This document shows positions 15,438-49,984 of a DNA stretch of 64,000 nt, in pieces. The DNA is taken from positions 531,166 to 595,165 of the forward strand of contig MU008190.1 in assembly GCA_010909165.1 (NCBI GenBank), written 5' to 3'. A model generated the notes under the pieces. It did not search any database. It worked only from the letters and a program-made list of their open reading frames with translations, and had not been told where the DNA came from. This DNA is from Anthoceros angustus (taxonomy: Eukaryota; Plantae; Anthocerotophyta). Every line of letters starts with the position of its first letter. The first letter of the stretch is position 1. A program made the position numbers and the translations under genes.

Positions 15438-15451
15438 TCCCGCAAGCGCCA
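15438..15451 (-). other. Primer-binding site (tRNA-Asp type, degenerate)
   Basis: TGGCGCTTGCGGGA after TTTT at the LTR end. Confidence 0.75.
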
Positions 15452-20435: not shown

Positions 20436-20635
20436 GTTACCTTTTCTCCTCACCAAGGTCGTTTTGACCCGTTTCTTTTCCTGCATATCCTCTTTGCCTT
20501 CCCGACATGGTCCTACAACTCCCGCTCAAAAGGAGCAAAAATTTCCTTGCATGTCTTCACCAAACCATTTCTAGCAAAGAGTGTGGGCTGTTCAAACGAA
20601 CTCATTTAAGCTTGTTGCCCAAACTTTATGCTCCA

Positions 20636-22060: not shown

Positions 22061-22336
22061 TGTTGGGAGAATCATAGCTGTGGTAGCAAAACACAGCAAA
22101 GATAGTAGAAAGCTTTGCACAAAGAGTTGTATGCATTGATTATAATAGAAAGTACAAAAGCCTTTATATAGGCTAGGGTTATAACCATAAGGTGGTTGTA
22201 ACCATAAGTAGTTCTAACCTCTAAGTGGTTGTAACAACTAACTACTCATTAAACTACCTAAAGCCCTAAGAACTAAATTAATTAATAGCCTTAGGTGCCC
22301 TAGTGAAGAGTGCCCTAAATAGGTCATATTTCATCA
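22061..22336 (-). repeat. Copia A family 3' LTR (~276 bp), with PPT (AGTGAGTGGGGAG) at 22337-22349
   Basis: TG...CA termini; near-identical to 61434-61715. Confidence 0.85.
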
Positions 22337-24925
22337 CTCCCCACTCACTATGAACTAGGTGTGAAGAATAGCTTCAAAATGAGACTAAAAGGCTAGTTAG
22401 CTCCCACTAACTTGAAAGCTATCCGCTAACTAAGAAAACAATTAAAAACTGGCTTACATTTAAGCAGAATTAATGTAATCAAAATTAATTACCAAAAACT
22501 TAATTAGGAAATGGTAAATTCCTAAACAAGGTAAAAGATAAAAGTAAAACTTAAACTAGGTTAATCTTAGTAAAAACCATAGGTAAAAGTTAAAAAACTT
22601 AAAGGGTAAAATGAAAACCCATTAATGTAATGCCGGGCCATATGATGCCGTCATGCCCATGGGGGTCATACTGCATGTACCCTCCCCATACGGTTTTATT
22701 CCTCCTCCTCGCCTCCCGCCTCGCGCCTCCCGCCTCCCGCTCATGAAGACAAAGGGAGTGCGCAAAACGGCGGGGGCGGCGCCGCGGAGGAGCGCGCCGC
22801 GCCCCCGCCCGCCCATGTACCTCGGATCACCGCGCGTGGTGCGCAAGTAATGGTGCCCGCAAGGAAGAAGGGTGGAGGGGCGGGAGGGACGCGCCTCCGA
22901 GAGCACGCCCCCGGGCAGGTGTGATCCTCCACCGCATCTAAATGGATTCCAACCTTTGTGAGAGCCCACCACGTTTCTGTGGGATGAAGTGGTGACCTGT
23001 GGTTGAAGAAGTCACCGGGAGAGGTGCAGGAGGTCGCCAATTGATGTGTGAGTGCCATATGCGGAGTGTCTCACCCAAGCCGGAGATTAGAAAGATGTCG
23101 CCCATGTCTTGTCTCAATGTCTCAAAAGTGCCTGCTAATCCCCAACATGCTCCAGCATATGTCACACCATGCGTGTGCGGAGAGATCGTCGAGGAAGATT
23201 CATAAAGCTCTGTGGAGGAAGAAATCGCAGATTGTTCTCTCTCGATACAAGTGCCTTGGAAGAATCTTCATTGAAGGGCTTCGCTCACTGATGAAGGAGG
23301 CTGAAATCTCAAGTAAGGCATGTGTAGCAAGGCATTCTCGTGAAGGGAGGCACCTTGAGCAGGATGCCCCCCCTTTGTCATGAGGAGACCTAGTTGTAAG
23401 CTGTGGGCATCTTCAAATGACCATTTTCCAGTTTCAAAAATATTAATTGTGATGAATTTTCTGATACTATTTTCGCAGATTTATGTATGGAAAATTATGG
23501 GAAAAAGGAAAATGAAATGAAAATGAAGAAAATGAGAAAAATGAAAAGGTAGACATGCTTTTGTGACTCTAAAAGGTGTTCTAACTTATTTTTCTCTTGC
23601 TAAAAACTTGCCATTTTAGGTTTCTTTTCCGCTCAAGAAGACATAGGATATAGGAAACATAGGGTTCTCGAAACCCGCATATATCCCAAGGGTGATGATG
23701 TGAAGCTCATCTATATAATCACTAATATGAAAGGGCGGGCCGACGCATACCATGCTCCTATGTTTGCCGTGAAACTAAGATACATGATACGGGTTATGTC
23801 TGAAGAATTTACATATGATCCATGTCTATCGTGAGTATTCCGAGGATGAAGAGAATATGAAAAGTTTTAATTAGCAAAATATTATTTAATATTTTAATAT
23901 TATTTTCTAGAGACCTCAACTATGTATGAAGGAGAGGAGAGGATACGAGGCCTATGTTAAGATTGAGGATGATTGTAAGACTTAGAATAGAATATTGGAT
24001 TACTAAGGTTATCTTAAGTAGACCAATTTAGCTAGGATGAACTATGGAGGCTTAGACAATGTGTCCAATATACCTAAACATTTCATATGTTTCTGCGTTC
24101 AATGCCTAGTGACTTTGTTAATAAATCACATTATCTAAAGTTTGAACATAACTAATATCTATAGTTTTATCCTCTATTTTCTCATGATATAATGATATTC
24201 GATGAATATGTTTAGTTCTAGAGTGGAAGAGGGTTCCTTGACAAGGCTATAGCTCCGACTATCACTCAACAACAAGGTGGGCTTTTCGCTTGTGATGAAG
24301 TTCACTCAAGGTTAGCCTAGTCCATACTATGTCTTTAGCAACCGAGGTTAGTACTCTACACTACCGGGACAAGGCTATGGTTGGTTGTTTCTTTGACCAG
24401 ATATTGGTGCTCCCACAGCGTAACTCGATACGGACCGCGGTGTGTCACATAGTGTCGTAATGTCAACGCCTTTATGCTCGGTGTATACTTGAATGTCAAT
24501 GTGCATGGTACCCTTGAGGTATCTCGAATATGCGCTTAGTTGACATCCGTTCACGCCTGTGGTTCTCGTGAATTGTGAACAGGAGCGACTTGAAAGATAT
24601 ATCCGGTCGAGTGAAGTTGGATAAATATATATGTGCCAACAAAGATGTCGATATGGGACGCGACATTTCCAACTTGTCAGTTGTCTTTGGACTCATATCC
24701 ATGGTAAGCGACCGCTAGCAAAGGTGTAGGTGTTTGCATCTTCAAGTCCAAACTTGGTTAAACTCTTTAATGTACTTGGTTTGAACAATACTCGAGTCTT
24801 GTTTGCTCGATCTCTAATAATGTTGACACCAAGTGCATATGTCATTTCTCCTAAATCGACATTTAAAAAGTCTTGAGCCGCCTTTTGATCTCGGCTAGGA
24901 GAGTAAGAGTGGCCATGAATACGTC
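22061..24925 (-). mobile_element. Ty1/Copia family A 3' fragment: 3' LTR, PPT, long 3' region, RNase H and RT C-terminus
   Basis: LTR matches 61434-61715; DLGEMTYALGVNI and LIYLSNFTRPDI-type RT/RH motifs; ~23715-24925 duplicates ~30037-31310. Confidence 0.85.
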
Positions 24926-25257
24926 GACACCGGTAGGTGATCAAAACACTAGCAGTGGTCATCCTCCCAGGTGGTAGGATCTCTCCTACCGCTCACCATG
25001 GTAGGAGTTTCTCCTACGTGGTAGGACACCTCCTACCACTCATGTAGGCTACCTTTCTCCTCACCAGGTCGCTTTGACCCGCTTTTCCCTGCATATCCTC
25101 TCTTCCCGACATGGTCCTACAACTCCCGCTCAAAAGGAGCAAAAAATTTCTTTGCATGTCTTCACACCAAACCATTCCTAGCAAAAAGAAAAGTATGGGT
25201 CTCGCTCCAGCAAACTCATTTAAGGTCATGTTCCGCCCAATCTTTTGCAGATTCCAT
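24926..25257 (-). repeat. Fragment of the Gypsy LTR 5' end with part of the palindrome array
   Basis: Matches ~33395-33720 in reverse complement; joined abruptly to Copia RT. Confidence 0.8.
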
Positions 25258-30036: not shown

Positions 30037-30369
30037 CAATCACTAATATGAAAGGGGAATTCGGGCCGACCACCATGCTCCTATGTTTGCGAAACTAAGA
30101 TACACATGATACGGGTTATGTATCTGTGTGAAGAATTTCCGGACATATGATCCATGTCTATCGTGAGTATTCTTGAGGTTAAGAAAATATGGAAAAGTTT
30201 TAATTAGCAAAATATTATTTAATATTTTAATATTATTTTCAGAGCACCTCAACTATGTATGAAGAGAGGATGGGATACGCCTATGTTAAGATTGAGGATG
30301 ATTGTTCAAGACTTAGAATAGAATATTGGACTAGTTTTTAAGGTTATCTCAAGTAGACCAATTTAGGCT

Positions 30370-33300
30370 AGGATGAACTATTGGAGGCTTAGACAATGTG
30401 TCCAATATACCTAAACATTTCATATGTTTCTGTGCGATTCAATGCCTAGTGACTTTGTTAATAAAAATGCGTTATCTAAAGTTTGAACATAACTAATATC
30501 TATAGTTTTATCCTCTATTTTCTCTACGATATAATGATATTCGACAATATGTTTAGTTCTAGAGTGGAAGGCAGGGTTCCTTGACAAGGCTATAGCTCAC
30601 GACTATCACTCAACAACAAGGTGGGCTTTTCCGATGAAGTTCACTCAAGGTTAGCCTAGTCCATACTATGTCTTTAGCAACCGAGGTTAGTACTCTATAC
30701 TCGACTCGGTCTTGGACAAGGCTATGGTTGGTTGTTTCTTACTTGACCAGATATTGGTGCTCCCCAATAGCAGACGTCGATCACGGATCTGCGTGTGGTC
30801 ACCGAGTCGGCGTCGGTATTAATGTCAACGTCTTTATGCACGGTGTATACTTGAATGTCAATCCACGTGTGCATGGTACCCTTGAGGTATCGAATATGCG
30901 CTTAGTTGACATCCGGTGTTCACGCGTGGTTCTCCGAGAATTGTGAGCAGGCGACTTGAAAGATATATCGGTCGAGTGAAGTTGGATAAATATATAAGTG
31001 TGTAACAGACATGTCGATATGGGAATGACATTTCCAACTTATCTTGTCTTGTCTTTGGACTCATATCCATGGTAAGCTGACCGCTAGCAAAGGTGTAGGC
31101 GTTTCGCATCTTCAAGTCCAAACTTGGTTAAACTTTCTTTAATGTACTTGGTTTGAACAATACTCGAGTCTTGTTTGCTCGATCTCTAATAATGTTGACA
31201 CCAAGTGCATATGTCATTTCTCCTAAATCGGACATTTCATAAAAGTCTTGAGCCGACTTTTGATCTCGGCTAGGAGGTAAGAGAGTTTGTGGCCATGAAT
31301 ACGTCGTCGACGTGAGCAATAAGTAAAGGTATCATTGCACGATATTAGGATATACATGCATGCATCGGCATCACTTTGCGGAAGCCTCTTTGATGAGTTT
31401 CACATGTATGTCCATATTCCAATTTTACCGGTTGAGCCATACAAGCCTTTAATTAGTCACATACCCAATCTTCCTTGCCTTTAACTCATAACCTTGGGCT
31501 GTTTCATGTAGATTTCTTCTTGAAGACGACCATGAGATATCTTGTCTTCACATCCATCATATGGAGCTCAAGATCATGATGGGTTGTTTTAAGATTATTC
31601 TAAGGGAAGCAAACTTTGCTCTGGGCGAATGTGGCCCATGGGAGGTAATCTAAACCCGGTATGGGTGAATCCCACAGCCACAAGGCGTGCTTTGTATCTC
31701 TCAATGGAACCATCTCCTTTTCTCTTAATTTTGAATACCCATTTGCTGGTGACTATCTTCCTACCCTTAGGTGGCTTAACCAATTCCATGTAGAGTTACT
31801 AATGAGAGAGTTATATTCGAATCTCTGACTACCTTCCATAAGGCTTTTCGAGAAGAGAAAGCTTGTTTTAAGGTAAGAGGTTCTTGGATCTATGGTTGCC
31901 TTGTACACTTGTGAGTAAAGTGATACAGAATAGGATCATCAAAACAGCTAGATATCCTAAAGGAGGTTCCTTCCATCCCTTGGATTGCGGGACGGGTTCT
32001 TAAGTTGTACCTTTGTGTAGGTTCGGTGCATCTTCCAAGCGAACATCAATAGGATCATGGTGCTCCATGTCATTCAGGAGGGTCATCATGCTCTTCATAA
32101 AAGTGTCACTGGCTCCTCGACTTGAATGTTGTCGCCATCGTGGTGTTTCATGTGGAATAGATGCTAACTCCTCCTCCTCCTGCAAGAGGTTCAACCACGG
32201 GAACACGTAGGCGAGGCGGAAATTGAGTGATATAATCGGTATCATCAAATGAGGAGGTATCTCGAGGGCTCTTGACGTCCTCGGGGCGGATGTGGCTCCC
32301 TCTGGGGAAAGAGGTAAGACTCATGAAAAGTAACACTCGCATATATAAGCTTCCGTGTGGTGGGTTCAAATAACTTGTAACCTTTGATGCCTTCGGTGTA
32401 GCCAATAAATAGATATTTGGCAGCTTTTGGATCTAACTTCTTGCGTTGTACTTTAGGGATAAAGACATATGCAAGAGATCCAAAAATTTGAAGGTGATCT
32501 ATGGAAGGCTTGTTGCCAGTGAATGCTTCATATGGAGTCATACCTTGAACTGAGGAAGTCGGCAGGCGATTCATGAGATAGGTTGCTGTAAGGAGGGCCT
32601 CGCCCAATAAGCTTTGGATAAGTTAGCTTGTGTTAGCAGCAACTGTAATCTCTTAGGCGGAGATTCTTATCGCCATTTCTTTGAGGAGTGTATACTACAC
32701 TTAATTGTTGAGCTACGCCTTCTCGACAAATTCAGCAAATCTATGAGATGTAAACTCTCCACCGTTGTCGGAACGTAAGGTCTTGAGTTTGTGATCGTAA
32801 GCCTTTACGCCCATGCCATGTAATCCTTGAAAAGCGATAAGTTTCACTCTTTGGGTGAGGATGTAGGGCGAGGCAGAATAGTCGGTAAAGTTAAGAAGTA
32901 TCTACTACCACCTAAGGAGGGTGTAGAGAGGGGTCCACAAATGTCTGTGTACTATCTCTAAAGGTGACTTGGCCCTTTGAGGAGATGGATTTTGAAAGGT
33001 TCTGGTGACGTTTGTGAGGACACGGGTTTACCAATCTAAGTTGTGAACCTTGGAGAGGCAGGTGTTCTATAGAGGTTGTCTCTAGACATTTGGAGTAACT
33101 TCTGACTATTAGGATGACCTAATCTACAATGCCAGAGCATCGTGTGTGTTGGTTGTGCAGAATGTTGGGAGGCTACATTGACGGAATGTGTGGCTCCGAC
33201 TGTAATTGACAATCTATAGAGTCCATCTTCTAAGATGCCAGTGCAGATATTGTGTGTTTTATTCTTAAGGTAGGAAAGAGAACAGCTATCGGCATATAAA

Positions 33301-33394
33301 AGGACCTGCATGTTGTGTTCTTTGCAAAGACTAGCGGCAGACACTAGGTTTTTGCACATGGCAGGAACATGGAGGACTTGGTGAAGATGAAGAG
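30370..33394 (-). pseudogene. pol: Copia A pol (IN-RT-RH), frameshifted, interrupted at 33394 by the Gypsy insertion
   Basis: ORF fragments 33036.., 32245..32607, 31595..31789, 31128..31319, 30858..31121. Confidence 0.9.
33390..33394 (+). repeat. Left target-site duplication AAGAG of the Gypsy element
   Basis: Identical AAGAG at 59494-59498. Removing the element restores Copia sequence homologous to ~54672-54697. Confidence 0.92.
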
Positions 33395-33599
33395 TGTGGA
33401 ACGCAAAAGTTTGGGCAACTAGCTTAAATGAGTTCGTTTTGAAACAGGCCCACACTCTTTTGCTAGAAATGGTTTGGTGAAGACATGCAAGGAAATTTTT
33501 TGCTCCTTTTTGAGCGGGAGTTGTAGGACCATGTCGGGAAGGCAGAGAGGATATGGGGAAAAAGCGGGTCAAAACGACCTCGGTGAGGAGAAAAGGTAA

Positions 33600-33845
33600 C
33601 CTACATGAGTGGTAGGAGGTGTCCTACCACCGTAGGAGAAACTCCTACCATGGTGAGAGGGTAGGAGAGATCCTACCACCGTGGGAGGATGACCTGCTAG
33701 TGTTTTGATCACCTACCGGTGTAGGAATAGCTCCTACCATGGTAGGAGAGGGTAGGAAGGTATCCCACCGTGGGAGAAACTCCTACCGTGGTAGGAGAAA
33801 GGGAAAACGCCTACCATGGTAGGAGGATGTCCTACCACGGTGGGA
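33600..33845. repeat. Array of ~10 CCTACC(AT/AC/GT)GGTAGG palindromes in U3
   Basis: Perfect CCTACCATGGTAGG plus variants spaced ~20-30 bp apart. Confidence 0.88.
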
Positions 33846-34045
33846 TAGGTTTCTAAGGAAGTAGCTTATGTTTTAGGCAGGATAGGCTTGCTATATATAG
33901 AGTCTTTTAGTGGACTAGATAAATAGGCCAAAATAGGTAATTAAGAAATTAGAGGCTAATTTTCAGTAATTAGAAATTAGAAAAATAGGGAAATTGGTAT
34001 TTTAGTATAAGGAATTAGGAAACTAACATCAATGGTGGGAAAGGG

Positions 34046-34116
34046 GCCACGTGGCACACATCCAAGGGCAGGATAGAATGGTAGTTACTTTTCTAACCCT
34101 TGGGTGACTTATAAAA
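34046..34116 (+). promoter_or_regulatory. Putative promoter of the U3 ORF: G-box GCCACGTGGC (34046-34055) and TATAAAA (34110-34116)
   Basis: Both motifs are present in all four LTR copies, follow an AT-rich tract and lie ~540 bp before the ORF ATG. Confidence 0.55.
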
Positions 34117-34652
34117 GTGGTGCAGTGCTGCAGGAGGCCACAACTCGAAACTTGAAGGAGGCGGCCGCAGAAGGCGCCGCCACACCTCAAGCTGCCCAAG
34201 GCCCCCATACAGCACGCACGCCCCCTGTTGAGGAGGAGAAGGGCGCAAGCTCAGCAAGGAGGAAATCCAGCGCCCAAGAGAGGAAGAAGGAGGAAAAGAG
34301 AAGAAGAGAAGGGAGAAGAAGGTTGGGGCGCAACCCAACACTTGCCAAGCTCGTGAGGGTGCCTAGGAGGGTGGAGCGTGGCAAGATTGCTAGGAAACCG
34401 TGCGGGAAGGGCTCCTAAATTGCGTGGGTGTAAGAGTCCGTGGGGAATTTTGTTGAGCTTTCTCTTGCAGAAATCGGGGTTTGGGACGCCAAGGTGTAAG
34501 GCTGAGGAAGGAGAGCAAGGGCAAGGACCTTTGAGCTGTGAGCAAGAGCAAATCGAGGAGGAGGAGCGTTTGCAAGGATAAGAAGTCGGGGCTGGAATTG
34601 CGGAGAGGCATCACTTTTCTTCAATTTCGTGCAAGTACTAACCAAGGAGGCC

Positions 34653-37504
34653 ATGACCAAGCCTACCATGACCAAGGGCAAGGAGGTAGTAGCCAAGGAG
34701 CGTCCACCAAGGAGGTGGCGCAGCGGCAAGAGGTCTAAGGCGGAGGATCGACCGAGGGTGGAAATTTGACATGCCCTTATTTACGTGCTATGCAGGCCAG
34801 CTATCCTCTAGAGACCTTTCAGACTTTCGACCTTGGGCAGCAGAGAGAATATTCAGCTAGAGTGGGTGTATGGGCGACATTGGTCTTACACCAACCTTGA
34901 ATTGATAGAGAGTGTTTTGCTAATTTGCAGCAGACGGAAGAGGAATTGGCCGCCTTACCGGATAGAAACGCAGACGGATCCACGGTGTTGGACAAGGAGC
35001 ATACGCCCGTATATGGCAGCCGGATAGCGAGGATAGCGGAATCACGTTGATGGAAGGAACGAGCGAGGCAAGCGTGCATCAACGGCGGATCTTCCCAAGG
35101 GAGCCCTTACACTTATGCAAGGGGCATGAAGGCTAAGTCCAAGAACGGTTGGCGACGGACCAAATCTTGGAGCCCAAGTGGAGATTGTTCACAAGAATTG
35201 TTTTGGGCTTGGTGAGCAATCCAAGGGTGTCATATTTCAGCACTACCTTCCTCCATTTTCTATGGAAGATCACTCAAGGAGCGAAGCCGGATTGGGGCTC
35301 ATCATGTATGAAGCATACACCTACCACCGGAAAAGTTCGAAACCCAACGTCGGATGAAGATGGTCAATGCTATCTTAGCACTTATCTAGTGCATTTGTGG
35401 GAAGTAGAGGGCTACTCACAAGTAAGGAGTTGGATGATTCCAAGCATCCCTTTAACATTGTGTACTTACGGCCGGAGAGGGACAGGAGTGCTTGGTGCTT
35501 TGCGCTAAAGGAGGTGCCGCAGCACCACAGGACATTATTGGAAGGAATCCTCCGAAAGATAGGCCGAGGATGTGCAGGAGGACTTGCAAGGAGAAGTTGT
35601 AGGGGATTTGAAGTTTGGACCGCGGAGATGCGGAGATGGAAGGTAGGATAGATCCTACCATGGCGTGAATCCCGCCACGAGTGGTGGGAGGTGTTCCCAG
35701 TGGTTTGGGACCCCTTCGTCCTCTCATGACAAGGCCTACGGTGGGAATTAGTCCTACCACGGTAGGAAGTAGTCCTACTGGTAGGAGCACCTCCTACCAC
35801 GGTAGGAGGAAAGGAAGTCACGGTTTGGAAGCTCCCAAGAGGAGATAAGAAGGCAACCGGCCCGTTAGGTGGGCGAGCGGATGGAGTCACGGTGGGAGGA
35901 GTTGCCCCACCAAGTGATGAGCGGGAGCTCATCATAGGGAAGCAAGGGATGTAAGATCCCATGAGCAAGGCAAAGGCCTTGAGTCTCCGGAGGTAAGAAA
36001 GGAGACTTGGACATGTTGGAGGAGATGCTGCGCATAGGGGAGATGTTCAAGGTAGATGTAGGAGCCGCCAAGAGGAGAGTTGAATTCTTGAAGACGGAGG
36101 CGAGAAGACAAGGACCTACCAAGCAAGGGAAATTGCGGGTAGGCGAGCGGAAACCCAGCGGCAGGAGGATGTTATGAGGATGGAAGCTCAAGTGGAGCAC
36201 TTGGAAAAGAGTCTTGAAACAAGGCTACAGGAGGCAAACAATCATATTCGGAGAACAAGGCTCTTACCAAGCAATTGGCAGCTCGAGAGGAGAAGGTGGA
36301 GCAACTTGCTCACATGGTGCGCACATGGGAAAAGAAGGCAGAAGACAAGCAAGTGCTGCTAATGGAGGAGAGGTCAAGACGAGAGCAATCTCTGCAGCAA
36401 ATGAGGACAGCACAAAGGCAAGTAGGCGCACATGAGCGGGTCATAGCCACACAGGCTGTGAAGATTAGTGACATGGAAAAGGAGCTGGGAGAAATCCGCC
36501 GGAGGCTGGAATTGAAGGAAGAAGAGCTGGAAGAACGGACACATTTTGTCCAAAGATTGGAAATGGAACGAGAAGTCCAGAAGAGTGCACAACTCCCTAG
36601 GAGGATAGGGGAGTTGGAGGAAGAAATGGCAAAGGAGAAAGGCCGTCATGAGGCGGTGGTGCAGCATATGTTGGCGGTGAGGGAGCGATTTTGATTATGC
36701 CCTACAAGAGATTGATCCGCCAAGCAGAATGAGAGGACGGAGAATGTGGCTCTCCATGTCAAGACCGGTGAGCTGGCCTTGGAGCGAGATGCTTACAAAA
36801 GCAAGTGTGAGCATGGAGTATGGCTTGAGGATTACAAGAATTGGAGATGGCACAACAACGATTTGCAGCCCATCTTCACAACAAGGTGCTCAAGGCCACT
36901 AACGAGTTGTTGCGACTTGAGGAGATGATGGGACCTCATGACGATGATAGGGGAGGCCCTCATGCAAGTCCAACCGGAAGCCTTAGACTTGGAGAGTGTC
37001 CCAAGCAACAGGGTGGAGAAACTTCGCACTGGAGAAGCAAGTGAAGAGGCTGTGGAGAAGCGAGTGAAGCGGGAAGCTGCAGTGGAGAGAATCACCCGTG
37101 AAGGGGTAAGGAAGAAGAAACGACCCGGTAGGAACTCCTACCGTGGTAGGAGGAGTTCCTACCGTGGTAGAGGGACTCCTACCGTGGTAGAAGGTCCTAC
37201 CATGGTAGGAGGAAGAAGCGGATTCAAGGTCGCTAGCATGGATTTGACGGCAAGGGAGGCGAGTACCTTGGCCCTTGCAGAAAGAAGGAAGAGGGGTTGA
37301 TCTTGCAGAATGGAGCAAGAATCACAAGGAGAAGACCAACCTCCTAACATGGGTGCAGCAAGGAGCTCACTTGCTCCACAAGTGAGAGGAAGAGGAGAAG
37401 CGAGGATGAGCCGGTGGCTAAGAGAGCCGGCTATTTTATTGGAGGAAGGAACTCAAGATAGGCATCAAGATAAGGAAGGGATTCATAAGAAGTCCTTAAA
37501 TTAG
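34653..37504 (+). CDS. LTR-encoded (U3) protein of unknown function, ~950 aa if frameshifts are errors: globular N-domain, PTxVG repeats, long coiled coil
   Basis: Reading frame pieced together from four LTR copies whose indels often differ: MTKPTM..., QLEWVYGRHWSYTNLELIEECF, KWRLFTRIVLGLVSNPRVSYFSTTFLHFLWKITQGAKPDWG, CYLSTYLVHLW, and an E/K/R-rich heptad region at ~36170-36950. Whether it is one ORF is inferred. Confidence 0.65.
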
Positions 37505-37761
37505 CTTGAAGACATGGGGCAAGATGCCACTTGGGAAGACTTTTCTTTAGAGGAGGAGCATTAATGCTTGTCACCAGAGAGTGTGTTGACTAGCTAGATA
37601 GGAATGTTGACAGAGCCATTAAGGCTCACATAGGTGAATTTGCTAGAATAGAATTTTACCCAAGATGCTTGGATGTCGAACTTAAATTCGACAATAGGAT
37701 ACACTAAAATAAGGAGTAAGGCGGTGCAGGGCGCGCCAGGGAGGCTGTGTGAGGACCTCCC

Positions 37762-37768
37762 TATAAAA
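37762..37768 (+). promoter_or_regulatory. Putative canonical LTR TATA box (genomic RNA promoter)
   Basis: CCCTATAAAAGG ~860 bp before the LTR end, conserved in all copies. Confidence 0.6.
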
Positions 37769-38629
37769 GGAGGGAGCTTGTGAAGTAAAATTATCGTGTC
37801 TTGCGCTCCCATCCTCCCGAGTCCTTCACTTTGTGAATTTCGTGCCGCAAGCCAACGCAGGTCCGTAGAGAGGAGAACGCGGTCGGAGTGGGCGGAGGGC
37901 TTGCTCTTTGCAGCGCCCCTGCGCTCCCGTGAATGGTTCGTGTGAATTGTTTTGCTTTGAGTGTGTGGCGATGCTCAAGGAACTCTCGGCTTGAGGGTAG
38001 ACTGCAGGAAAGACTCGGAGGTTCTCGCTGTCCGGTACAAACCACATAGCAACCGCCCAAGGAAGAACTCGTTAATTTCGGACGGACCCAGCAGCCGTAA
38101 GGGCGAGTTGGAATTAATGAGCCAGCAATTGGTGTTAGAGTAGGAGATTGTGGAGGAAGGAAGGGTAGATGAGTAGAGAAGAAGAGGGCGTTGTTGATTG
38201 AGAGAGTTGTGAGGAGGATTAGAGTGTAGGAAAACTAAGGCCAGAGCCTAAGGGACGAATCCCAAATGCAAGTAAGAGGGCGCTCCTGTGGAGAAGAGTG
38301 TCTTAGGAGTAGGGACGGTTGCGGTGTGGGTCGGGGTCCCCGGCGCCCGTGATAGACACCTTTTGGCAGACGAACCTCAATTGTGTGGTGTCGTTGTAGG
38401 TTGAGGTTTGGTGAGTTTAGCGACGGGCGTAGCTGCTGTAGAGGGAGCGTGAGAGAGGCGCCTTGCTTGTTTAGAAGGCTGAGGTAGTGTGTAGCTGCAG
38501 TAGTGACGGATTCTCAAGATTCGACTGTTCCCAAGTCTCATGGGACGAAACCCAACGTCAAACGACTGGGATAAGTGTGGCCGCTAGAGGGTGCATCTCG
38601 GAGTGCCCTGGATCTGCCTCCCACATTTT

Positions 38630-38647
38630 TGGCGCCGTTGCCGGGGA
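38630..38647 (+). other. Primer-binding site complementary to the tRNA-Asp 3' end
   Basis: TGGCGCCGTTGCCGGGGA, the typical Athila PBS, 4 nt after the LTR CA. Confidence 0.93.
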
Positions 38648-38898
38648 CTTGTGGCTGAACAGCTGAAATTTTGAGATTTTCGTTGCTAGCTTGCAGTATG
38701 AGCTGAGAGGATCTTGTAAGGAGGTGGAGCGGGGGTCTAGGAAGAGGCCTACACGTCCTGGAACCCGTGCGTTGTGAAGGAGGAGCTCCACGCCTCCTGA
38801 ATGGTGTGATTTTGTGTTCCCGCAGCAAGAATGGCGCATGGCGGTTGGCTGATTTTTCTTTAACAACCGTGTTTTGGAGGCTATGAGGATGCTTGCAG

Positions 38899-41560
38899 AT
38901 GTCTAGCAGAGGGAGGGGAGAGGAGAAAACCATAGGAGGTCACCCCACCATTCGCAAGAGATCTAAGAGCTGCAAGAAGAAATCAATGGAGGGAGGAAAA
39001 CGCAGGTGGTTGCACGGCTCCAGAGGAGGAAGAGCTAAGGGCGCTTGAGGAGGAGGCCGTTTTGCCCTTGCCTACAAGGGGAGCCAAGTGATCCAGCGAC
39101 GCTTCGGAGAAGGGACGCCGAAATCACCGACAGTGAAGTAAAGGAGGTGGTTGAAGAGGAGTTGGTTTGTGAAGAGGAAAGCGAGGAAGCACCATTTCGA
39201 GCGCGATTCAAGTTCAGCTACCAGCACTGGGCCTCCTCAACGCTGGACCTTCGAGTGATGGGTCTAGCTCAACCTCTAGCGAACAGTGAAGAAGGAAGGG
39301 TGAGCAGTGGAGAAATTCAGCTCGGTCGAGGATCTTGGAGCGCCTTGATAGGATCACGCCCAGCTCACCATCTTGGGACGAACGCCTAGGGAGACGCCAT
39401 CCCACAGCAGGCCCAAATTTTTGCAACACCCTCGCAGAGAACTTTGGTTGGATAACTTACCGCAGCAAGAATGGCGCATGGCGGTTGGCTGATTTTTCTT
39501 TAACAACCGTGTTTTGGAGGCTATGAGGATGCTTGCAGATGTCTAGCGGAGGGGAGAGGAGAAAACCATAGGAGGTCACCCCACACATTCGCAAGAGATC
39601 TAAGAGCAAGAAGAAATCAATGGAGGAAGCGCGTGGTTGCACGGCTCCGGAGGAGGAAGAGCTAAGGGCGCTTGAGGAGGAGGCCGTTTTGCCCTTGCCT
39701 ACAAGGGGAGCCAAGTGATCCAGCGACGCTTGGAGAAGGGACGTCGAAATCAAGCAAGTAAAGGAGGTGGTTGAAGAGGAGTTGTGTGAAGAGGAAAGCG
39801 AGGAAGCACCATTTCGAGCGATTCAAGTTCAGCTACCAGCACTGGGCCTCCTCAACGCTGGACCTTCGAGTGATGGGTCTAGCTCAACCTCTAGCGAACA
39901 GTGAAGAAGGAAGGGTGAGCGGTGGAGAAATTCAGGCCTTGTCTGAGGATCTTGCGGAGCGCCTTGATAGGATCACTGCCCAGCTCACCATCTTGGGACG
40001 AACGCCTAGGGAGACGCCATCCCACAGTGCCCAAATTTTTGCAACACCCTTTTCGCAGAGAACTTTGGTTGGATAACTTACCGCAGCAAGAGGGGCGCAC
40101 GTCGAGCTCATCCGGACTAGGGATCATGAGTGGAATCGGTGTAGGAGGGCTTGCCACAACCCCACGCCAGAGATGTCAAGTTTGGGGAAAAGAGGAAGGC
40201 GACGCAGGCGCTTTGTGCGCGCACTTTGAGCATGTTCTCATGCTAATCTGGAGGATACGGTCGCCGATCGACTGTGCATCTTTCCTGGGTTGCTGAGAGG
40301 GCATGCCCAGGTGGTACAGTCGAACTTACGGGGCAAGTGCGCCTGTAGATTGGGATTCTTTGGCTGCCTTCAATCGATTTCGGGTCTCGCCACGCCACCA
40401 CACCACGCAAAATTGAGAACTCTCCGTAGGAAGAAGAGGGAGTCCTTGTTTGATTATGTTGAGAGGTTCTATGGCTACCTCGATCGAGTGCAAGTGTCGC
40501 GTGATGCCCGGAAATCCACCCACATCAGGATACTCACAAGAGCAAGCGTTGGACTGGTTTGTGAGTGGACTATCTCGAAAGATGGAGGTACATTGCAGCG
40601 GGGACTAAGACATTGGCGGAGCAATCCGATTAGCGGAGTGGAATCGGTGAGCTAGGAAGGAGGAGGAAAAAGAGGCGGAGTCATAAGAAGAGGAAAGGGT
40701 CTCGGAGGTCTAGCTCTTCCTCTTCTTCTTTCACTTCCAGCTCGTCTTCATCTTCTTCTTTGGAAAGTGAGGAAAGTGGTACCCAGGAGAGCTCTACGTC
40801 GGATGAAGAATCCGAGAAGGCTTATGAACGACGCATGAGGAAGGACTTGGAGAAAGTGAAAAAAAGATAGGAGGAAGCTGAACGCGCGCTGGAGAAGGAG
40901 AGAAAAGGGAAGACGGTCCGACGGATGGAGAAAGGGGAAACGTCCCGCAGGAGGAGGGATTGCAGGGCAAGTGGAGGCTTTGACAAAAAGATTGACAGAA
41001 TTGGAGGTCAAGGCTGTGAAGAATCAAGCTCCACGGAGGTCACCCTCACCTGCAAGACAGTTGGTGTATTGCTCAATTTGTCATCAAACCGGACACACCA
41101 ACCGGGAATGTATCCGAGCACCGCGCATGCTGTGAATCACGTGGAATCTGTCATGCCTGGTGATTATTGGTACGTGGATGAGGCTTACCAAGTGCAGGCA
41201 GTCACTGGAAGTCGCCCGCCTCAATCGATGAGGGCGACTTACCAACTGCACCCCGTGAGGTATGGGTCACGCCTACCTCACCGGGACCATGGAGACCGGA
41301 GCCACAAAGGCCAATGGCAATTCCACCTGGTGCTGTTACAATTGGGACACCTGGTCATTATTCAATGAATGCCCGTAACCTAAACAAATGGGTTATGTAC
41401 CTTTTGTCAAGTATGCAAGGAGTTGGGGCACAAGGTTGGTGACCCAAGGTGTTCAGAGTAGCAAGGGTAGCCTCAGACGCCTGTGGGTGAGGTTCACAGC
41501 TCGCAGGAAGGAACGCCGTCAATTCAAACCGCAATCACGGTGACCACAACGCCGGCGGTT
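38899..41560 (+). pseudogene. gag: Gypsy gag (N-terminal extension, capsid-like core, three CCHC-like knuckles), frameshifted; 38820-39470 is duplicated
   Basis: MSSRG.. start; HFEHVL and ESLFDYVERF core; Ser-rich tract; CSICHQTGH, CYN..PGH and CQVCKELGH motifs at 41070-41450. Confidence 0.8.
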
Positions 41561-41802
41561 TGAAGCGAATTGATTTTCTTGATGAATCCAGCGTGTATTC
41601 AGGGATTGTAGAAGAAGGGTATGAAGGAGAGATGAGTGCAGACGAAGGGCTGTTGGTGGCCAAAGTTACCACCGATCGAGAGAGAAAGACCGAAAATCCG
41701 GAAAGCGCCGTGAACGAGAGGAACGGAAGAAAAGGAAGGTGAGGGACGACTCACCTTGGCCTCCAGACTCGTGGGGTCGGAATTTGGTAGAGGAGGAGGA
41801 AA

Positions 41803-44800
41803 ATGAAGAGGTCCATAAGACGCCTACCGTGGAGATGCTCCTACCATGGTAGGAGGAACGCCACTGGTAGGAGGCGAACCTACCATGGTAGGAGGGGAGG
41901 GAGTGACCCACCCACAAGCGGAAGAGGGGAAGGGTGTTTCCCGACATCGCAGAAGGAAGTGGCGGAAATGTTGGAGGATGAGCTAAGGAGGCTCACCCAA
42001 CATGCGAAGATGGAAGAAGAGGCAGCGGAGCCTGAAATTGACAATCCGCTGATCATGGAGTCCCAGCCAGCTGAAGGGACCAAGAGTGTGAGGAGTTTAC
42101 CAATAAGGTCGGAGCCGACCAGCATCAGGGCTGCAAACGGGGAGGAAACATTGCCAGACAAGATCTCCAGTTTCGCTGATGCATTGCTTGACCGAGAATT
42201 TGTGGTCAGCTTGAGACAATTGCTTGCGGTGAGTCCAAGATCCCGCAAAATTGTGAAGGAAGCGATTAGGGGGATCCCTGAACCCATGGGGACGAGAAGG
42301 AGGCCGGTGGAGGTAAATGTGGTTGAACTTGTTGATTTGGGAGCGCCAGAGATTGAAATTGAGATTGCAGGCTGCTTGGTGCCTAATGTGCCATTAGATT
42401 CGGGTTCTGGAGTCAACTTGATGACAGAGGAGACAGCCCATCGCCTTGGTTTCACCAAGTTTAACCCAATCCGAGTGTTCTTGAGGATGGCAGATCAAAC
42501 AAGGAGGAAACCTTTGGGGGTGCTGAGAAATGTGCCAACCGTGATTGGTGGTCTCACATTCCATCTTACCTACATTGTCATGAGGCCGGTCGATCTAGGC
42601 TACAAGGTTTTGATAGGCGGTTGGTTGTATGGTACCGCTTGTGTCTTTGATTTGTCGCATTACATTTAAGTCATGTAGGGTAGGGCCTGTGAGGGTGTCA
42701 TGGAGCAAGGCACCCTATGAAGGGGAGTCCGCGCTTCAGTCCGATGGGTACACCTCGGGTAGTACGGGGGTGAGCTCTTCGGGCGGTGACCGAGCTTACC
42801 GAGGACCCTCAGTTGAGGTGGCAGCAATAAAATCTGAGTTGGTGTACACCTGCCTACAAGTAGATGGTGTCGTAGAGGAGGAGTCAGAGGACGAGGCACA
42901 TAGAGAAGGAGTAGCCTTCTGGAAGGGTAGAGCCTATGATCGCGATTTCCCCGACGAAGGATCGGGGAATAGTGCAGCCGGAAGGGACTTATGTAGATCA
43001 GAGAGAGGACTTGGAGCTAGAACCCAAGGTGGTCAAGATCTCCGCATCTAGGAGTGGTAGAAAAGAAGAATTTCAGAGGGTCCTTAGAGAATATGTCGAT
43101 GTGTTTGCCTTCAAGATTCGACATGACTTCAAGAATTGGGGATACACCGAATCGATTTGAAGGAGGGCACTCAGGATCAAGCAATACAGGAATCCCAAGT
43201 ATTCTATGGTCGTCAAGGATCACCGACCAATACTTGACTTGTGATTTATCCGGTGCTTACCGAGTGGGTCGCCCCATTGTAATTGTACCTAAAGCAACAG
43301 GGAAGGTACGGGGTGTGTCGATTTCGTGAAGCTTAACGAAGAAGGACCACCACTTGCCTTTCATGGACAGTGCGACACTGGCACGGGCCATGAAATGCGC
43401 TTTCTAGATGGGTACTCGGGTTACAATATTTGAGGAGGGAGGACCAGACAAGACTACGTTCACAACCGATTGGGGCACTTACGCTTATTCCAAGCTACCT
43501 TCGCTTGTGCAACGCCCCGCCACTTTTCGTGGTGAATGCTATCTTCCGAGATTTTCGGAAGTTCATGGAGGTATTTCGGATGATTTTGCGTGTTTGGCGG
43601 AGGAAGGCACCTAGACATTAAGTGCGGCGGAGTCCAACATGAAGCTTCATCCAGGGAAGTGTTATTTTGGCATGACGGAAGGTATTTTGTTGGCACATCG
43701 AGTTTCGAAGAGGATTGCGGTAGATAAGGAGAAGGTGGCGGATGAGATGGACGCACCCGGTGAGGCGTGCCTTTGTAGGACCAGGATATTACAGGAGGTT
43801 CATCAAGGATTTTGCTAAGAAGGCAGCCTTGGCAATTGACCAAGAAGGATACACCTTTCGAATGGACAAGGCAGAGGCTTTTCAGGGTGAGACAGCTGGT
43901 GAGCGCACCCATTACAGCCGATTGGGAGAAACCGTTTCATGTATACGTGGATGTGTCCGCTTATGCCATTGGGACCATCTTAAGCCAGAAGGACGAGAAG
44001 AAACGGGACCATCCGATTTTCTATGCCGGTAGACAGCTCACGGATGCTGAGAAGAACTACTCAACCACAGAGCGAGAGGGTCTTGGTATCATTTACTCCT
44101 GTAAGAAGTTTAGGCACTATCTGCTTGCTTGCAAAGTGACGTTTCATGTTGACCATTTTGCGTTGAAGTACCTTGTGAACAAGCGGTTGTCGTGAAGGAT
44201 TGCCAGGTGGGTACTACTGCTGCAAGAGTTTGATTATGACGTAGAAACTAGGCCGAGCGGCAAATCGATTTCATTTCTCGTCAAACCGGAGAGCGACTTG
44301 AAGCCACAGATGACCGATTTCCTGACGAGGAGTTGGTTGCCACGGCCCGGGTCAAGGGGAGGACGTGAGCATGTTGTGGACGGCCTAAGCTTGATCAGCA
44401 AGCCTTGGCAGAGAGGTCAAATGAGCAAGAAGGAGGCGGAAAGGCGCGCAGGACAACTGGAATCCGAGAGGATAAAAGGGCGCCAGTATGGGCGCGAGGA
44501 GGAGGCTGGAATGCTCCTCAAGGGTGAGCAGTCAGGAGGGCTGCAAGTGGAGGCCAGCCGTTGGCAAAAGAAAGAAGCGGATATGGGAGCGTGGGCAAGC
44601 AAGAAAAGGCGCCCACTTGGCGAGGTCAAGCTGTGCGCCATGGGGCCGAGGAGGAGAAGGCCCTAGGGAGGTAGGTGCAGAGGGCGAGGAAGGAGATGCA
44701 TCCCATGAGAAGCTTGAGCAAAAGCAGGAGAAGAAAATGGCGATTCATGGGAAATCACTCATGAGGTGGCCATGGGGTGCAACAAAGGAGGAGGTCGCCA

Positions 44801-46170
44801 TGGGAGCACGAGCTGGACCTGGACACGAGGCTAGACCAGCAGGAATGGAAGAAATCCGAACGTTGTTGGAGGAGGAGCATGCAAACGGGCTGCAGGCTCA
44901 AAAACTTGCAGCATGGACAAAGCGGGGAGAAACTGGATTTGTGGATGGAACAACGCCGTCTGGGGCTGCTGGTGGGCGAGCTGGCAGGAGGCGACGTGGT
45001 ATGCGTGGAAGGAGGAGATTCGAACGTGAGGGGCGTTCATGCCCAAGATACTTGTTGAATGGTGAGGTACGAAATTTTCTAGAGCATGGAATCATGCCTG
45101 ATGGTTTGTCTAGGGAGGGGCGAGCTGTTTTTCTCCACAAGACAGCCCCTTATTGCCTACGGATGGGGTCTTGTACAAGCTTGGTCCAGACGAAGATTCG
45201 GCGATGTCTCCGGAAATTAGAGAAGGCTGGTCATAAGCTTTACATGCGTAAGAGGCTGGTGGTCATTATTCGACGCAAATCACGTGAAGAAGGTCTTGGA
45301 TGCAGGCTCGTGGGCTACAATGCGAGGGATGTGTGGGAATTTATTAGGAGGTGTGATGCGTGTCGAGGGTTGGAAGGCCCACTTTGTCAACACAAGGGCC
45401 TCTCACCTACATACTACCTTTGGCACCATTTGAGAAGTGGGTATAGATTTTGTAGGTCCAATCAAGCCACCCACACAATGGACAAGGAAGCAATATATCT
45501 TGGTGGCTACGGACTATTGTACAAAGATGGTGGAGGCTGAAGCAACAAGAAAGGACGACGACTGCGGTAAGTTTCTCTTTGAGAACATTATAACGAGGTA
45601 TGGATGTCCTTTGGAGTTGGTCAGTGATAGGGGAACTCATTTCCTCAAGCGAATGGTTTTCAGAAACAATCCCAAAGCGAATGTGATCTTGACCAAGGTA
45701 ATGTGACTCACATGTATGATTGGGACACTAAGCTACATTCGGTGCTATGGGCTGAGACAGCGAAGGTGACAACCAAGAAGACCCCTTATTATTTAACATA
45801 TGGCATGTCTCCGTGATGCCGTGAATTTGAAGTACCTACCTATAGAATCATGGAGGATGAGCATGACTAGAAGATAGCCGTAGCTAGACTAGAGTCTTTC
45901 ATAGAGCATGAGGAACGTGGGAAGATGCTTTAGAAGAAACTCAATTCGTGGAGCTTAGAAAGGATAGGCATGATGGGAAGTTGAGGAAGCAAGAAGCTAT
46001 CATGGCCGGGATTTGGTTCTTCTATATGATAGCCGTATATGGACTTCCTGGAAGCTTAGATTGAGATGGATGGGACCTTATGAGGTGGTGGCAGTATGAG
46101 AATGGATCCGCAACCGTGCCGGATGGGGATTTCGCCAACTAGAGTGAATGGGTGGAAGGTTAAGAAGTAC
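41803..46170 (+). pseudogene. pol: Gypsy pol: protease, RT, RNase H, linker insert, integrase; frameshifted
   Basis: PLDSGSGVN (PR, ~42397); DWGTYAY, CNAP and FMEVF (RT); FHVYVDVSAYAIG..AEKNYSTTEREGL (RH); GIDFVGP, VSDRGTHF and WMGPYEV (IN). Confidence 0.93.
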
Positions 46171-46204
46171 CTTCACCCGAGATCTATTTGCGAGGGCAAA
46201 CAGT

Positions 46205-46215
46205 GAGGAGGGGAG
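46205..46215 (+). other. Polypurine tract GAGGAGGGGAG
   Basis: Separated by TA from the 3' LTR start TGTGGAACGC at 46218. Confidence 0.9.
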
Positions 46216-46416
46216 TATGTGGAACGCAAAAGTTTGGGCAACAAGCTTAAATGAGTTGCTTTGAAACAGCCCACACTCTTTGCTAGAAATGGTTTGGTGA
46301 AGACATGCAAGGAAATTTTTGCTCCTTTTGAGCGGGAGTTGTAGGACCATGTCGGAAGGCAGAGGATATGGGGAAAAGAAACGGGTCAAAACGACCCGGG
46401 TGAGGAGAAAAGGTAA

Positions 46417-46652
46417 CCTACATGAGTGGTAGGAGGTGTCCTACCACCGTAGGAGAAACTCCTACCATGGTGACGGTAGGAGAGATCCTACCACCGTAGG
46501 AGGATGACCACCTAGTGTTTTGATCACCTACCTGTAGGAATAGCTCCTACCATGGTAGGAGAGGGTAGGAAGGTATCCTACCAGAGAAACTCCTACCGTG
46601 GTAGGAGAAAAGGAAACGCCTACCATGGTAGGAGGATGTCCTACCACGGTGG
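46417..46652. repeat. Palindrome array in the 3' LTR
   Basis: Same as 33600-33845. Confidence 0.85.
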
Positions 46653-49600
46653 GAGATAGGTTTCTAAGGAAAGTAGCTTATGTTTTAGGCAGGATAGGCT
46701 TGCTATATATAGAGTCTTTTAGTGGACTAGATAAATAGGCCAAAATAGGTAATTAAGAAATTAGAGGCTAATTTTCAGAATTAGAAATTAGAAAAATAGG
46801 GAAATGGTATTTTAGTATAAGGAATTAGGAAACTAACATCAATGGTGAGAAAGGGCCACGTGGCACACATCCAAGGGCAGGATAGAATGGTAGTTACTTT
46901 TCTAACCCTTGGGTGACTTATAAAAGTGGTGCGGTGCAGAGGCCACAACTCGAAACTTGAGGAGGCTCACGCGGCGCCGCCACACCTCAAGCTTCCCAAG
47001 GCCCCCATACAGCAGCACGCCGCCTGCTGAGGAGGAGAAGGAGGGCGCAAGCTCAGCAAGGAGGCGAAATCCGCCAGCGCCCAAGAGAGGAAGAAGGAGG
47101 AAAAGAGGAAGAAGAGAAGGGAGAAGAAGGTTGGGCAACCCAACACTTGCCAAGCTCGTGAGGGTGCCTAGGAGGGTGGAGCGTGGCAAGATTGCTAGGA
47201 AACCGTGAAGGGCTCCTAAATTGCGTGGCGGTGTAAGAGTCCGTGGGGAATTTTGTTGAGCTTTCTGCAGGAGAAATCGGGGTTTGGGGCGCCAAGGTGT
47301 AAGGACTGAGGAGGAGAGCAAGGGCAAGGACCTTTGAGCTGTGAGCAAGAGCAAATCACGAGGAGGAGGAGAAACGTTTGCAAGGATAAGAAGTCGGCGA
47401 GCTGCAGGAATTGCGAGAGGCATCACTTTTCTTCAATTTCGTGCAAGTACTAACCAAGGAGGCCATGACCAAGCCTACCATGACCAAGGGCAAGGAGGTA
47501 TCAGCCAAGGAAGGAGCGTCCACCAAGGGGGGTGGCGTAGGAGCAGGCAAGAAGTCTAAGGCGGGAGGATCAGACCTCGGAGGGTGGAAATTTGACATGC
47601 CATTATTTACGTGCTATGTAGGCCAGCTGTCCTCTAGAGACCTTTCAGACTTTCGACCTTGGGCAGCAGAGGAGAATATTCAGCTAGAGTGGGTGTATGG
47701 GCGACATTGGTCTTACACCAACCTTGAATTGATAGAGAGTGTTTTGCTAATTTGCAGCAGACGGAAGAGGAATTGGCCGCCTTACCGGATAAACGCCGGA
47801 CGGATCCACGGTGTTGGACGTGAGGAGCATACGCCGTATATGGCGGGCGGATAGGATAGCGGAATCACGTTGATGGAAGGAACGAGCGGAGGCAAGCGTG
47901 CATCAACGGCGGATCTTCCCAAGGGAGCCCTTACACTTATGCAAGGGGCATGAAGGCTAAGTCTAAGAACGGTTGGCGACGGACCAAATCTTGGAGCCCA
48001 AGTGGAGATTGTTCACAAGAATTGTTTTGGGCTTGGTGAGCAATCCAAGGGTGTCATATTTCAGCACTACCTTCCTCCATTTTCTATGGAAGATCACTCA
48101 AGGAGCGAAGCCGGATTGGGGCTCATCATGTATGAAGCATACACCTACCACCGGAGAAGTTCAAACCGCGTCGGATGAAGATGTCAGGCCATGCTATCTT
48201 AGCACTTATCTAGTGCATTTGTGGGAAGTAGAGGGCTACTCACAAGTAAGGAGTTGGATGATTCCAAGCATCCCTTTAACATTGTGTACTTACGCCGTGA
48301 GAGAGACAGGAGTGCTTGGTGCTTTGCTAAAGGAGGTGCAGCCACCGACATTATTCGGAAGGAATCCCTTCGAAAGATAGGCCAGAGGATGTGCAGGAGG
48401 ACTTGCAAGGAGAAGTTGTAGGGGATTTGAAGTTTGGACCGCGGAGGATGCGGAGATGGAAGGTAGGATAGATCCTACCATGGCAGGAATCCCGCCTACA
48501 AGGGTGGGAGGTGTTCCCACAGTGGTTTGGGACCCCTCTCGCCCTCTCATGACAAGGCCTACAGTGGCAGGAATTAGTCCTACCACGGTAGGAAGTAGTC
48601 CTACGGTGGTAGGAGCACCTCCTACCACGGTAGGAGGGAAAGGAAGTCACGGTTTGGAAGCTCCCAAGAGGGAGATAAGAAGGCAACCGGCCCGTTAGGT
48701 GGGCGAGCGGATGGAGTCACGGTGGGAGGAGTTGCCCCAAGTGATGAGCGGGAGCTCATCATAGGGAAGCAAGGGATGTAAGATCCCATGAGCAAGGCAA
48801 AGGCCTTGAGTCTCCCGGAGGTAAGAAAGGAGACTTAGACATGTTGGAGGAGATGCTGCGCATAGGGAGATGTTCAAGGTAGACGTAGGAGCCGCCAAGA
48901 GGAGAGTTGAATTCTTGAAGACGGAGGCGAGAAGACAAGGACCTACCAAGCAAGGGAAATTGCGGGTAGGCGGAAACCCAGTGGCAGGAGGATGTTATGA
49001 GGATGGAGCACTTGGAAAAGAGTCTTGAAACAAGGCTACAGGAGGCAAACAATCATATTCGGAGAACAAGGCTCTTACCAAGCAATTGGCAGCTCGAGAG
49101 GAGAAGGTGGAGCAACTTGCTCACATGGTGCGCACATGGGAAAAGAAGGCGAAGACAAGCAAGTGCTAATGGAGGAAAGGTCAAGACGAGCAATCTCTGC
49201 AGCAATGAGGACAGACAAAGGCAAGTAGGCGCACATGAGCGGGTCATAGCCACAGTGTGAAGATTAGTGACATGGAAAAGGAGCTGGGAGAAATCCGAGG
49301 CTGGAATTGAAGGAAGAAGAGCTGGAAGAACGGACACATTTTGTCCAAAGATTGGAAATGGAGCGAGAAGTCCAAAGAACGGAGAATGCACAACTCCCTA
49401 GGAGGATAGGGAGTTGGAGGAAGAAATGGCAAAGGAGAAAGGCCGTCATGAGGCGGTGGTGCAGCATATGTTGGCGGTGAGGAGGCGAGATTTGGCTGAT
49501 TATGCCCTACAAGAGAGATTGATCCGCCAACCGTAATGAGAGGACGGAGAATGTGGCTCTCCATGTCAAGGCGGTGAGCTGGCCTTGGAGCGAGATGCTT

Positions 49601-49760
49601 ACAAAAGCAAGTGTGAGCATGGAGTATGGCTTGAGGATTACGAAGAATTGGAGATGGCACAACAACGATTTGCAGCCCATCTTCACAACAAGGTACTCAA
49701 GGCCACTAACGAGTTGTTACGACTTGCTGAAAGGAGAATGCTGGGACCTCATGACGATGA

Positions 49761-49984
49761 TGATGAGAATCATACACAAGCTCTAGCAATATGTGTTGCA
49801 TTACATTCATAATAGAAAGTACATGCCTTTATGTAGGCAAGGTAGTTGTAACCAATAAGTGGTTGTAACAACTAACCAATTAAATAACTACTAAAAGAAA
49901 CTACCTAGAGCCCTAAGGACTAAATTAATTATTAAGTCCTAGGTGCCCTAGTGAAGAGTGCCCTAATAGTAAGCTATTTTATCA
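49761..49984 (-). repeat. Copia B 3' LTR (224 bp), with PPT AGTGAGTGGGAG at 49985-49996
   Basis: tgatgagaatc...tattttatca; matches 56644-56870. Confidence 0.93.

Follow-up and report, generated by a model that had tools for sequence, protein, structure and literature searches.

The window analyzed here, a stretch of 64,000 nucleotides (nt) from Anthoceros angustus (assembly GCA_010909165.1, contig MU008190.1, positions 531,166 to 595,165, forward strand), holds an Athila-like Ty3/Gypsy retrotransposon of ~18 kb that spans 33395-59493 and bears the target-site duplication (TSD) AAGAG on both sides. Within its 5.2-kb long terminal repeat (LTR) lies a 2.9-kb coding region, likely that of an accessory gene, and we hold with high confidence that this gene is real and sits inside the LTR. 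The element and two further copies of its LTR are laid out as follows:

33390-33394, plus strand: left TSD AAGAG, abutting the 5' end of the long LTR
33395-38625, plus strand: 5' LTR (copy A), 5,231 bp, TGTGG..CCACA
38630-38647, plus strand: primer-binding site (PBS) of the Athila type (tRNA-Asp/Asn), a motif given in the ATHILAfinder preprint
40200-46170, plus strand: gag, protease, reverse transcriptase, ribonuclease H, and integrase (gag-PR-RT-RH-IN), frameshifted by the same assembly noise as the LTR gene
46203-46217, plus strand: polypurine tract (PPT) immediately 3' of integrase
46218-59493, plus strand: 3' LTR (copy B), with a Copia insertion at 49761-56870 and tandem duplications at 57452-58861
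59494-59498, plus strand: right TSD AAGAG
15456-20627, minus strand: LTR copy C with the open reading frame (ORF), damaged at its 5' end; after it come a PBS and a deleted internal region of 3.7 kb
4417-11724, minus strand: LTR copy D with internal duplications, a PPT before it and a PBS after it

Both the structural signals (LTRs with TG..CA termini, TSD, PBS, and PPT) and the domain order PR-RT-RH-IN are those of Ty3/Gypsy elements. An earlier, sequence-only reading of this DNA had set the LTR limits from the TSD AAGAG, the TGTGG..CCACA termini, the PPT, and the PBS, and these limits hold, all four signals having been located. The LTR start is preceded by a PPT at 46218 and, on the minus strand, at 11724, while PBS or PBS-like tracts lie downstream of copies A, C, and D; because copy D has a PPT before it and a PBS after it, it is common to tandem elements. 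The junction between PPT and LTR start also occurs in an independent short-read contig (run X3), and the whole 5.2-kb LTR is covered by short-read contigs of run X1. Copies C and D lie in tandem on the minus strand, in a deleted array whose internal region measures 3.7 kb, and LTR-sharing tandems are described as common in plants (PMC11899658). The gene is retained in this C-D element, as had been supposed of nonautonomous copies; the window contains no solo LTR bearing a TSD. The 3' LTR is interrupted within the ORF by a nested Ty1/Copia element on the minus strand (49761-56870), with 226-bp LTRs in direct repeat and the TSD GATGA.

The coding region within the LTR comprises the following parts:

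34653-37500, plus strand: LTR-resident coding region, assembled as ~950 codons with breaks from assembly indels; its 3' end is uncertain
35120-35440, plus strand: part of the N-terminal domain (N-domain) that matches the accessory-ORF family of related elements, Transposase_32/ATHILA-like, with a VANC-like fold predicted in those relatives
35990-36950, plus strand: Glu/Lys/Arg-rich segment, read as a coiled coil from its translation, weak coiled-coil Pfam matches, and periodicity (z 2.2)

A sense-strand coding region had been reported for all four LTR copies and was located in each. The length then proposed, ~950 amino acids, agrees with its span (949 codons in copy A, ~937 in copy C), but no copy is open as assembled. 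The assembly of the window is a noisy long-read one, in which the LTR copies differ by ~25 indel events plus 20-30 substitutions per kb, and gag-pol is disrupted as much as the LTR gene. Three-base periodicity reached z 2.6 in the ORF and 4.2 in gag-pol, with 0.6 and -0.5 in the LTR flanks; the test is a weak one, since the N-domain alone scored 0.3 and integrase 0.6. When each copy is given X at the breaks private to it, stops shared among the copies are avoided with 13 frame changes over 2,245 columns (shuffle mean 24.9; 0 of 200 shuffles as low). Because the antisense strand likewise needs 13, this count does not fix the strand, and the 3' part of the ORF is not significant (17/200). Substitutions shared between copies fall in 8 of 1,541 columns of the ORF versus 8 of 258 columns upstream, making them ~6 times rarer in the ORF (Fisher p 0.0007).

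The direct test of the frame covered 35090-35473, that is, 384 bases of ~2,850 (13% of the gene). Across this stretch, short-read contigs from two studies (X2 and X3) each carry 15 extra letters, including three sites where all four window copies shift frame. With the breaks read as X, one frame runs through 132 codons with no stop, compared with 7, 3, and 1 stops in the unmasked window frames. The breaks within the tested 384-base stretch, all of them accounted for by these contigs, are assembly noise; as the stretch is short of 15 of 399 bases, the true protein is probably nearer 990 amino acids. Several observations count against an intact gene: the longest stop-free sense run in copy A is 158 codons, only the 384 bases were compared with accurate contigs, and of the 6 scorable substitutions in that stretch, 3 are silent and 3 are not. 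The same breaks placed at random also leave an open frame in 522 of 5,000 trials (~10%), so that the weight rests on the agreement of the break sites and on the frame being the family-matching one.

Relatives of the element were taken as the five best-ranked of 80 loci obtained by Pol alignment (L001-L005). Each has a sense ORF of 190-742 amino acids lying 0.3-0.8 kb downstream of pol, which encodes a globular N-domain and then, where the contig extends, low-complexity sequence, with coiled-coil-like sequence also in L004 and L005. An accessory profile built from these five loci matches only them among the 80. No match to it was found in L008, a locus of the same broad clade with ~2.8 kb of sequence after pol, and L006 has <0.8 kb there. 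L005 shares 93% identity with a protein of Physcomitrium patens.

The window protein is probably homologous to this accessory family, judging from alignments in which the read-derived breaks were masked. With breaks as X, hhalign placed its N-domain against the relatives' family at 63% (E 6.9e-5, 99 columns, 20% identity); hmmsearch with the masked N-domain gave P values of 3-4e-4 against two profiles and 0.025 against a third; and a frameshift-aware profile alignment scored z 3.8-5.1 with two of the three profiles, a level that none of 150 nulls reached. The order of motifs GW..P..Y..W..YL is common to the window N-domain and the family. The window protein thus matches the L001-L005 family moderately when masked and not significantly when unmasked. 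On the other side of the scale, the L005-group profile was not significant even with masking (z 0.7-1.6), the profile score without the read-derived masks was no higher than the best background bins of the window, and unmasked single-frame pieces of the ORF found no true relative (0 of 373 candidates). A pattern search with ORF pieces yielded no locus among 537 matches, P0068 and P0069 were rejected as false, repeat-driven matches, and the unmasked pieces had no match in the Atlas. Single-frame pieces matched no Pfam family, PF20167 and PF03078 included, and in hidden Markov model (HMM) scans of 2,980 six-frame pieces the right piece ranked first or second with an E of only 2-2.5.

By profile and cluster matches, the relatives' family is itself linked to Transposase_32 (PF20167) and the ATHILA ORF (PF03078). 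The L005 ORF matched PF20167 at E 2.5e-4, precomputed PF20167 annotations exist for two family members, and the nearest Atlas clusters of the L001 domain are PF20167 and PF03078 (score 0.92); set against this, the 21 bits of the L005 match fall below the 45-bit cutoff. The guess of an ATHILA or Transposase_32 protein therefore stands for the relatives and has moderate backing for the window protein.

A fold search had also been proposed, and its outcome was divided. AlphaFold models of the relatives' domains, made from overlapping alignments, are compact helical globules (L005, pLDDT 81; L001, pLDDT 89). Among 48,161 chains compared, both models ranked first the DNA-bound VANC21 (PDB 9LNK, chain 9lnk_A), encoded by VANDAL Mutator-like DNA transposons: the L005 model at Z 9.2 (root-mean-square deviation [rmsd] 3.6, 192 of 205 residues aligned, next chain Z 2.1) and the L001 model at Z 6.4 (rmsd 4.0, 175 of 189 aligned, next chain Z 4.0). 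Both alignments cover the entire domain and stand clear of other chains. Foldseek, in contrast, found no match at E ≤ 0.001 in PDB or BFVD, and a profile search of PDB sequences returned coiled coils only. Caution is further due because Z values of 6.4-9.2 are middling for a helical domain and because the link to VANC runs via relatives at ~20% identity, the folded models being theirs and not the window protein's. VANC has been reported to be structurally related to MAIN, a silencing factor, and both VANC and the Athila domain were modeled as coiled-coil pentamers in the same work, the accessible part of which does not state a shared fold (PMC13547354).

The element is also dense in a 14-bp palindrome, CCTACC-NN-GGTAGG, with 78 matches in the window versus 2-4 expected from Markov controls and 0-1 matches in each of the five relatives. 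Its arrays lie near the 5' end of the LTR, twice in the ORF, and once in gag-pol:

33600-33845, no strand: palindrome array, candidate binding sites, 8 matches with ≤2 mismatches and half-sites 19-40 nt apart, role inferred
37137-37210, no strand: palindrome array in the ORF, 4 matches
35753-35806 and 41840-41892: further palindrome arrays

The protein had been described as a hydrophobic N-domain, Pro/Thr/Gly repeats, and a coiled coil. The “Pro/Thr/Gly repeats” are the translation of this repeated palindrome, which occurs as well in noncoding LTR and in gag-pol. VANC proteins are described as binding dense arrays of a short, family-specific motif and relieving silencing (PMC5735166), and the element carries such a dense array of a family-specific motif; by analogy, the palindrome may parallel the VANC target. 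The likeness to VANC would extend to a globular domain joined to a coiled coil and to the predicted fold of the relatives' domain. Differences are that the host here is a retrotransposon, that identity is 10-12%, and that the motif is a 14-bp palindrome rather than same-orientation 9-mers. It also speaks against the parallel that some palindromes lie in coding sequence, while VANC21 motifs are described as mainly noncoding (PMC5735166). The regions after pol in L002-L004 and L005 have short repeated words of their own (3-6 copies of a 9-mer, counted without a control), which are possibly family-specific targets in those relatives.

How the gene came to lie in the LTR is suggested by the sequence downstream of pol in the relatives, where the accessory ORF sits between pol and the 3' end, adjoining U3. 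A PPT-like tract lies within ~100 nt of the pol stop in 5 of 5 relatives, followed by TGT in L002-L005. Two of them, L001 and L005, have a second PPT-like tract with TGT 3' of the ORF; their tracts, at 3750-3775 and 6555-6580 in L001 and at 3367-3410 and 5330-5370 in L005, stand on either side of the accessory ORF. In L001 the first tract is without TG and the second leads via 1.0 kb to a PBS, which is the usual layout of an internal ORF. In L003 a 9-base stretch following the first tract reads as the reverse complement of 9 bases just before the PBS, a hint that there, too, the LTR starts upstream of the ORF, and in L004 a TATA-like box separates the tract from the ORF. The LTR starts of L002-L004 cannot be fixed because L002 and L003 end within the ORF and L004 ends 215 nt past it. 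The arrangement may occur in part of the lineage rather than in this family alone. The window gene is probably the accessory gene that this lineage carries after pol. The proposal that a plant Gypsy lineage moved an accessory gene into its LTR is supported as to the gene within the repeat, and the post-pol ORF of L001 fits the move. Two points tell against this derivation: the 9-bp match in L003 has an E of 0.71 alone and counts by its position only, and a second PPT 3' of the window ORF was looked for with no clear one found, a weak purine tract near 37550 being the sole candidate.

Two identical TATA-like boxes bear on where in the LTR the gene lies:

34109-34117, plus strand: upstream TATA-like box TATAAAAG, 545 nt ahead of the ATG, a candidate promoter for the LTR gene
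37761-37769, plus strand: downstream TATA-like box TATAAAAG, 865 nt ahead of the LTR end, a candidate promoter for the genomic RNA

If the two act in these roles, which they fit, the coding region would belong to U3 rather than to R/U5. Contigs of X3, a run guessed to be RNA, reach from the PPT to 37796 and none extends past 37900, an observation from one study and from contigs only that was not used as evidence. A sigma-70 promoter scan was discarded, as it does not apply to a plant.

The element itself resembles known ones. Its 5-bp TSD and TGGCGCCGTTGCC-type PBS are those given for Athila (in the available text of PMC6317226 and of the ATHILAfinder preprint). It further shares with Athila the gag-PR-RT-RH-IN order and, as seen in the element's relatives, an accessory ORF in sense orientation that belongs to the same domain family. 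No aRH or chromodomain was detected by Pfam in two pieces of the 0.7-kb insert between ribonuclease H and integrase, a sequence that is frameshifted. It differs in where its ORF is found, within the LTR instead of between pol and PPT, and in the length of the LTR (5.2 kb versus a typical 1-2 kb in the ATHILAfinder preprint). Its Pol differs as well, grouping with liverwort, moss, and fern sequences: ribonuclease H relatives at 48-70% identity come from Marchantia, Riccia, Calypogeia, Physcomitrium, Adiantum, and metagenomes, and a tree of 101 ribonuclease H columns places the element among liverwort, moss, and fern sequences (92/93), without resolution inside that group. These features point to a host that is probably a seedless plant. 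Phygy, the REXdb clade from Physcomitrium, is likewise a non-chromovirus Gypsy lineage of a seedless plant whose pol reaches the PPT. It was rejected as an assignment because, as described in PMC6317226, it has a 4-bp NCGN TSD, a mostly tRNA-Trp PBS, and a length of 7.7-10 kb, as opposed to AAGAG, an Asp/Asn-type PBS, and ~18 kb here. Ogre/Retand and Retrosat2 resemble the element in having long LTRs, of 3-6.5 kb, along with extra ORFs (PMC6431247, PMC3485330, PMC6317226), but in the descriptions available these ORFs are internal, upstream of gag or antisense after pol, and Tat lineages carry aRH.

The gene-in-LTR anatomy is real, and it is a departure among Athila-like elements, not a new class. 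U3-encoded proteins whose coding region is duplicated in both LTRs are known from vertebrate retroviruses, namely, sag of mouse mammary tumor virus and the 3' part of nef of human immunodeficiency virus; these are unrelated and far shorter proteins with immune functions. No precedent for an LTR-resident ORF in plants was found in the literature searched, which lacked most subscription journals, so one may have been missed, as may a published link between the ATHILA ORF and VANC. Nor did that literature yield a paper on a second PPT in Athila. The nearest plant case found was Retrosat2, whose ORF is described as internal. LTR-resident genes can be missed because plant LTRs are treated as noncoding and surveys, as described in PMC6317226, count extra ORFs up- or downstream of the polyprotein.

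Taken as a whole, we lean toward an explanation in which a post-pol accessory gene was drawn into U3 by priming from an upstream PPT and its product is a VANC-like DNA-binding factor. With the upstream PPT in use, everything from that PPT to R would be copied as U3 into both LTRs in each round, which by the standard scheme of reverse transcription would explain an ORF in both LTRs; such a PPT shift is, by itself, a somewhat favored account of the U3 placement. The box at 34109 would then drive an accessory mRNA and that at 37761 the genomic RNA. DNA binding is predicted for the globular VANC/ATHILA-type domain and oligomerization for the coiled coil, and the oligomer would bind the arrayed palindromes together and relieve the silencing of the element. 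That the product binds the palindrome and counters silencing is, on analogy with VANC, a tentative proposal and more doubtful than the placement.

Less probable, yet the strongest of the alternatives, is a gene of the same family with another role, whether as a chromatin or integration-targeting factor or as a particle-associated coiled-coil protein, with the palindromes serving as host transcription factor sites or RNA hairpins. Function does not follow from a shared fold, VANC is related in structure to the silencing factor MAIN as well (PMC13547354), and the ATHILA ORF is without an assigned function in the available text of the ATHILAfinder preprint. Against such a role, the DNA-bound VANC21 was the sole clear structural match, and the relatives differ in their post-pol repeated words, if at low counts, as family-specific VANC targets do. 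It is improbable that the genomic RNA starts at the upstream TATA, with the ORF forming a leader gene in R/U5: both boxes do read TATAAAAG, but R plus U5 would then measure 4.5 kb, and the ORF of the relatives adjoins U3. Still less credible is a decayed passenger, captured once and now an LTR pseudogene. The window offers no open copy, and copies B and D have a real-looking insertion and duplications, but gag-pol is broken at a like rate, short-read contigs from two studies agree on the extra letters, and shared substitutions are depleted ~6-fold in the ORF. A long “LTR” made by recombination or assembly from a short true LTR plus a duplicated internal segment is very hard to credit, for all that the region is rich in tandem duplications and noisily assembled, given that the long 5' end has the TSD directly beside it, that a PPT adjoins this end in two copies as well as in the independent contig, and that X1 contigs span the whole 5.2 kb.

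If the preferred reading of a VANC-like gene drawn into U3 is carried to its end, the LTR might be a self-contained anti-silencing cassette, in which a gene for a VANC-like DNA-binding protein is joined by a promoter and a palindromic target array of its own, the whole present twice per element and remaining in each solo LTR; the accessory ORFs of Athila type across plants would then be the retrotransposon counterpart of VANC. This broader picture is speculative. Placed in the LTR, a gene outlasts both the loss of gag-pol and the formation of solo LTRs, and the two-PPT layout of the relatives offers a simple route for internal genes into LTRs. The VANC-like fold predicted in seedless-plant relatives, together with a candidate 14-bp target, makes the function of the ATHILA ORF directly testable.

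Several other features of the window were observed. Pieces related to the nested Copia element lie at 22067-22364, 23717-24926, 30038-33393, 59500-59868, and 61438-61716. Positions 1-15454 hold deleted elements in tandem, in which internal blocks of 2 kb recur and one LTR is shared; this array may be real or assembly made. Older, diverged pieces of the LTR family lie beside copy C at 20641-21295 and 24927-25248, with 75% identity to the 3' end and 87% to the 5' end. The leader before gag (38817-40099) contains a tandem duplication of ~650 bp. Between ribonuclease H and integrase, ~0.7 kb (44350-45050) has no counterpart in intact relatives and shows periodicity at z 3.1; two pieces of this frameshifted insert had no match in Pfam. 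The insert is retained in deleted, nonautonomous copies at 1-272, 2099-2266, and 12201-13246.

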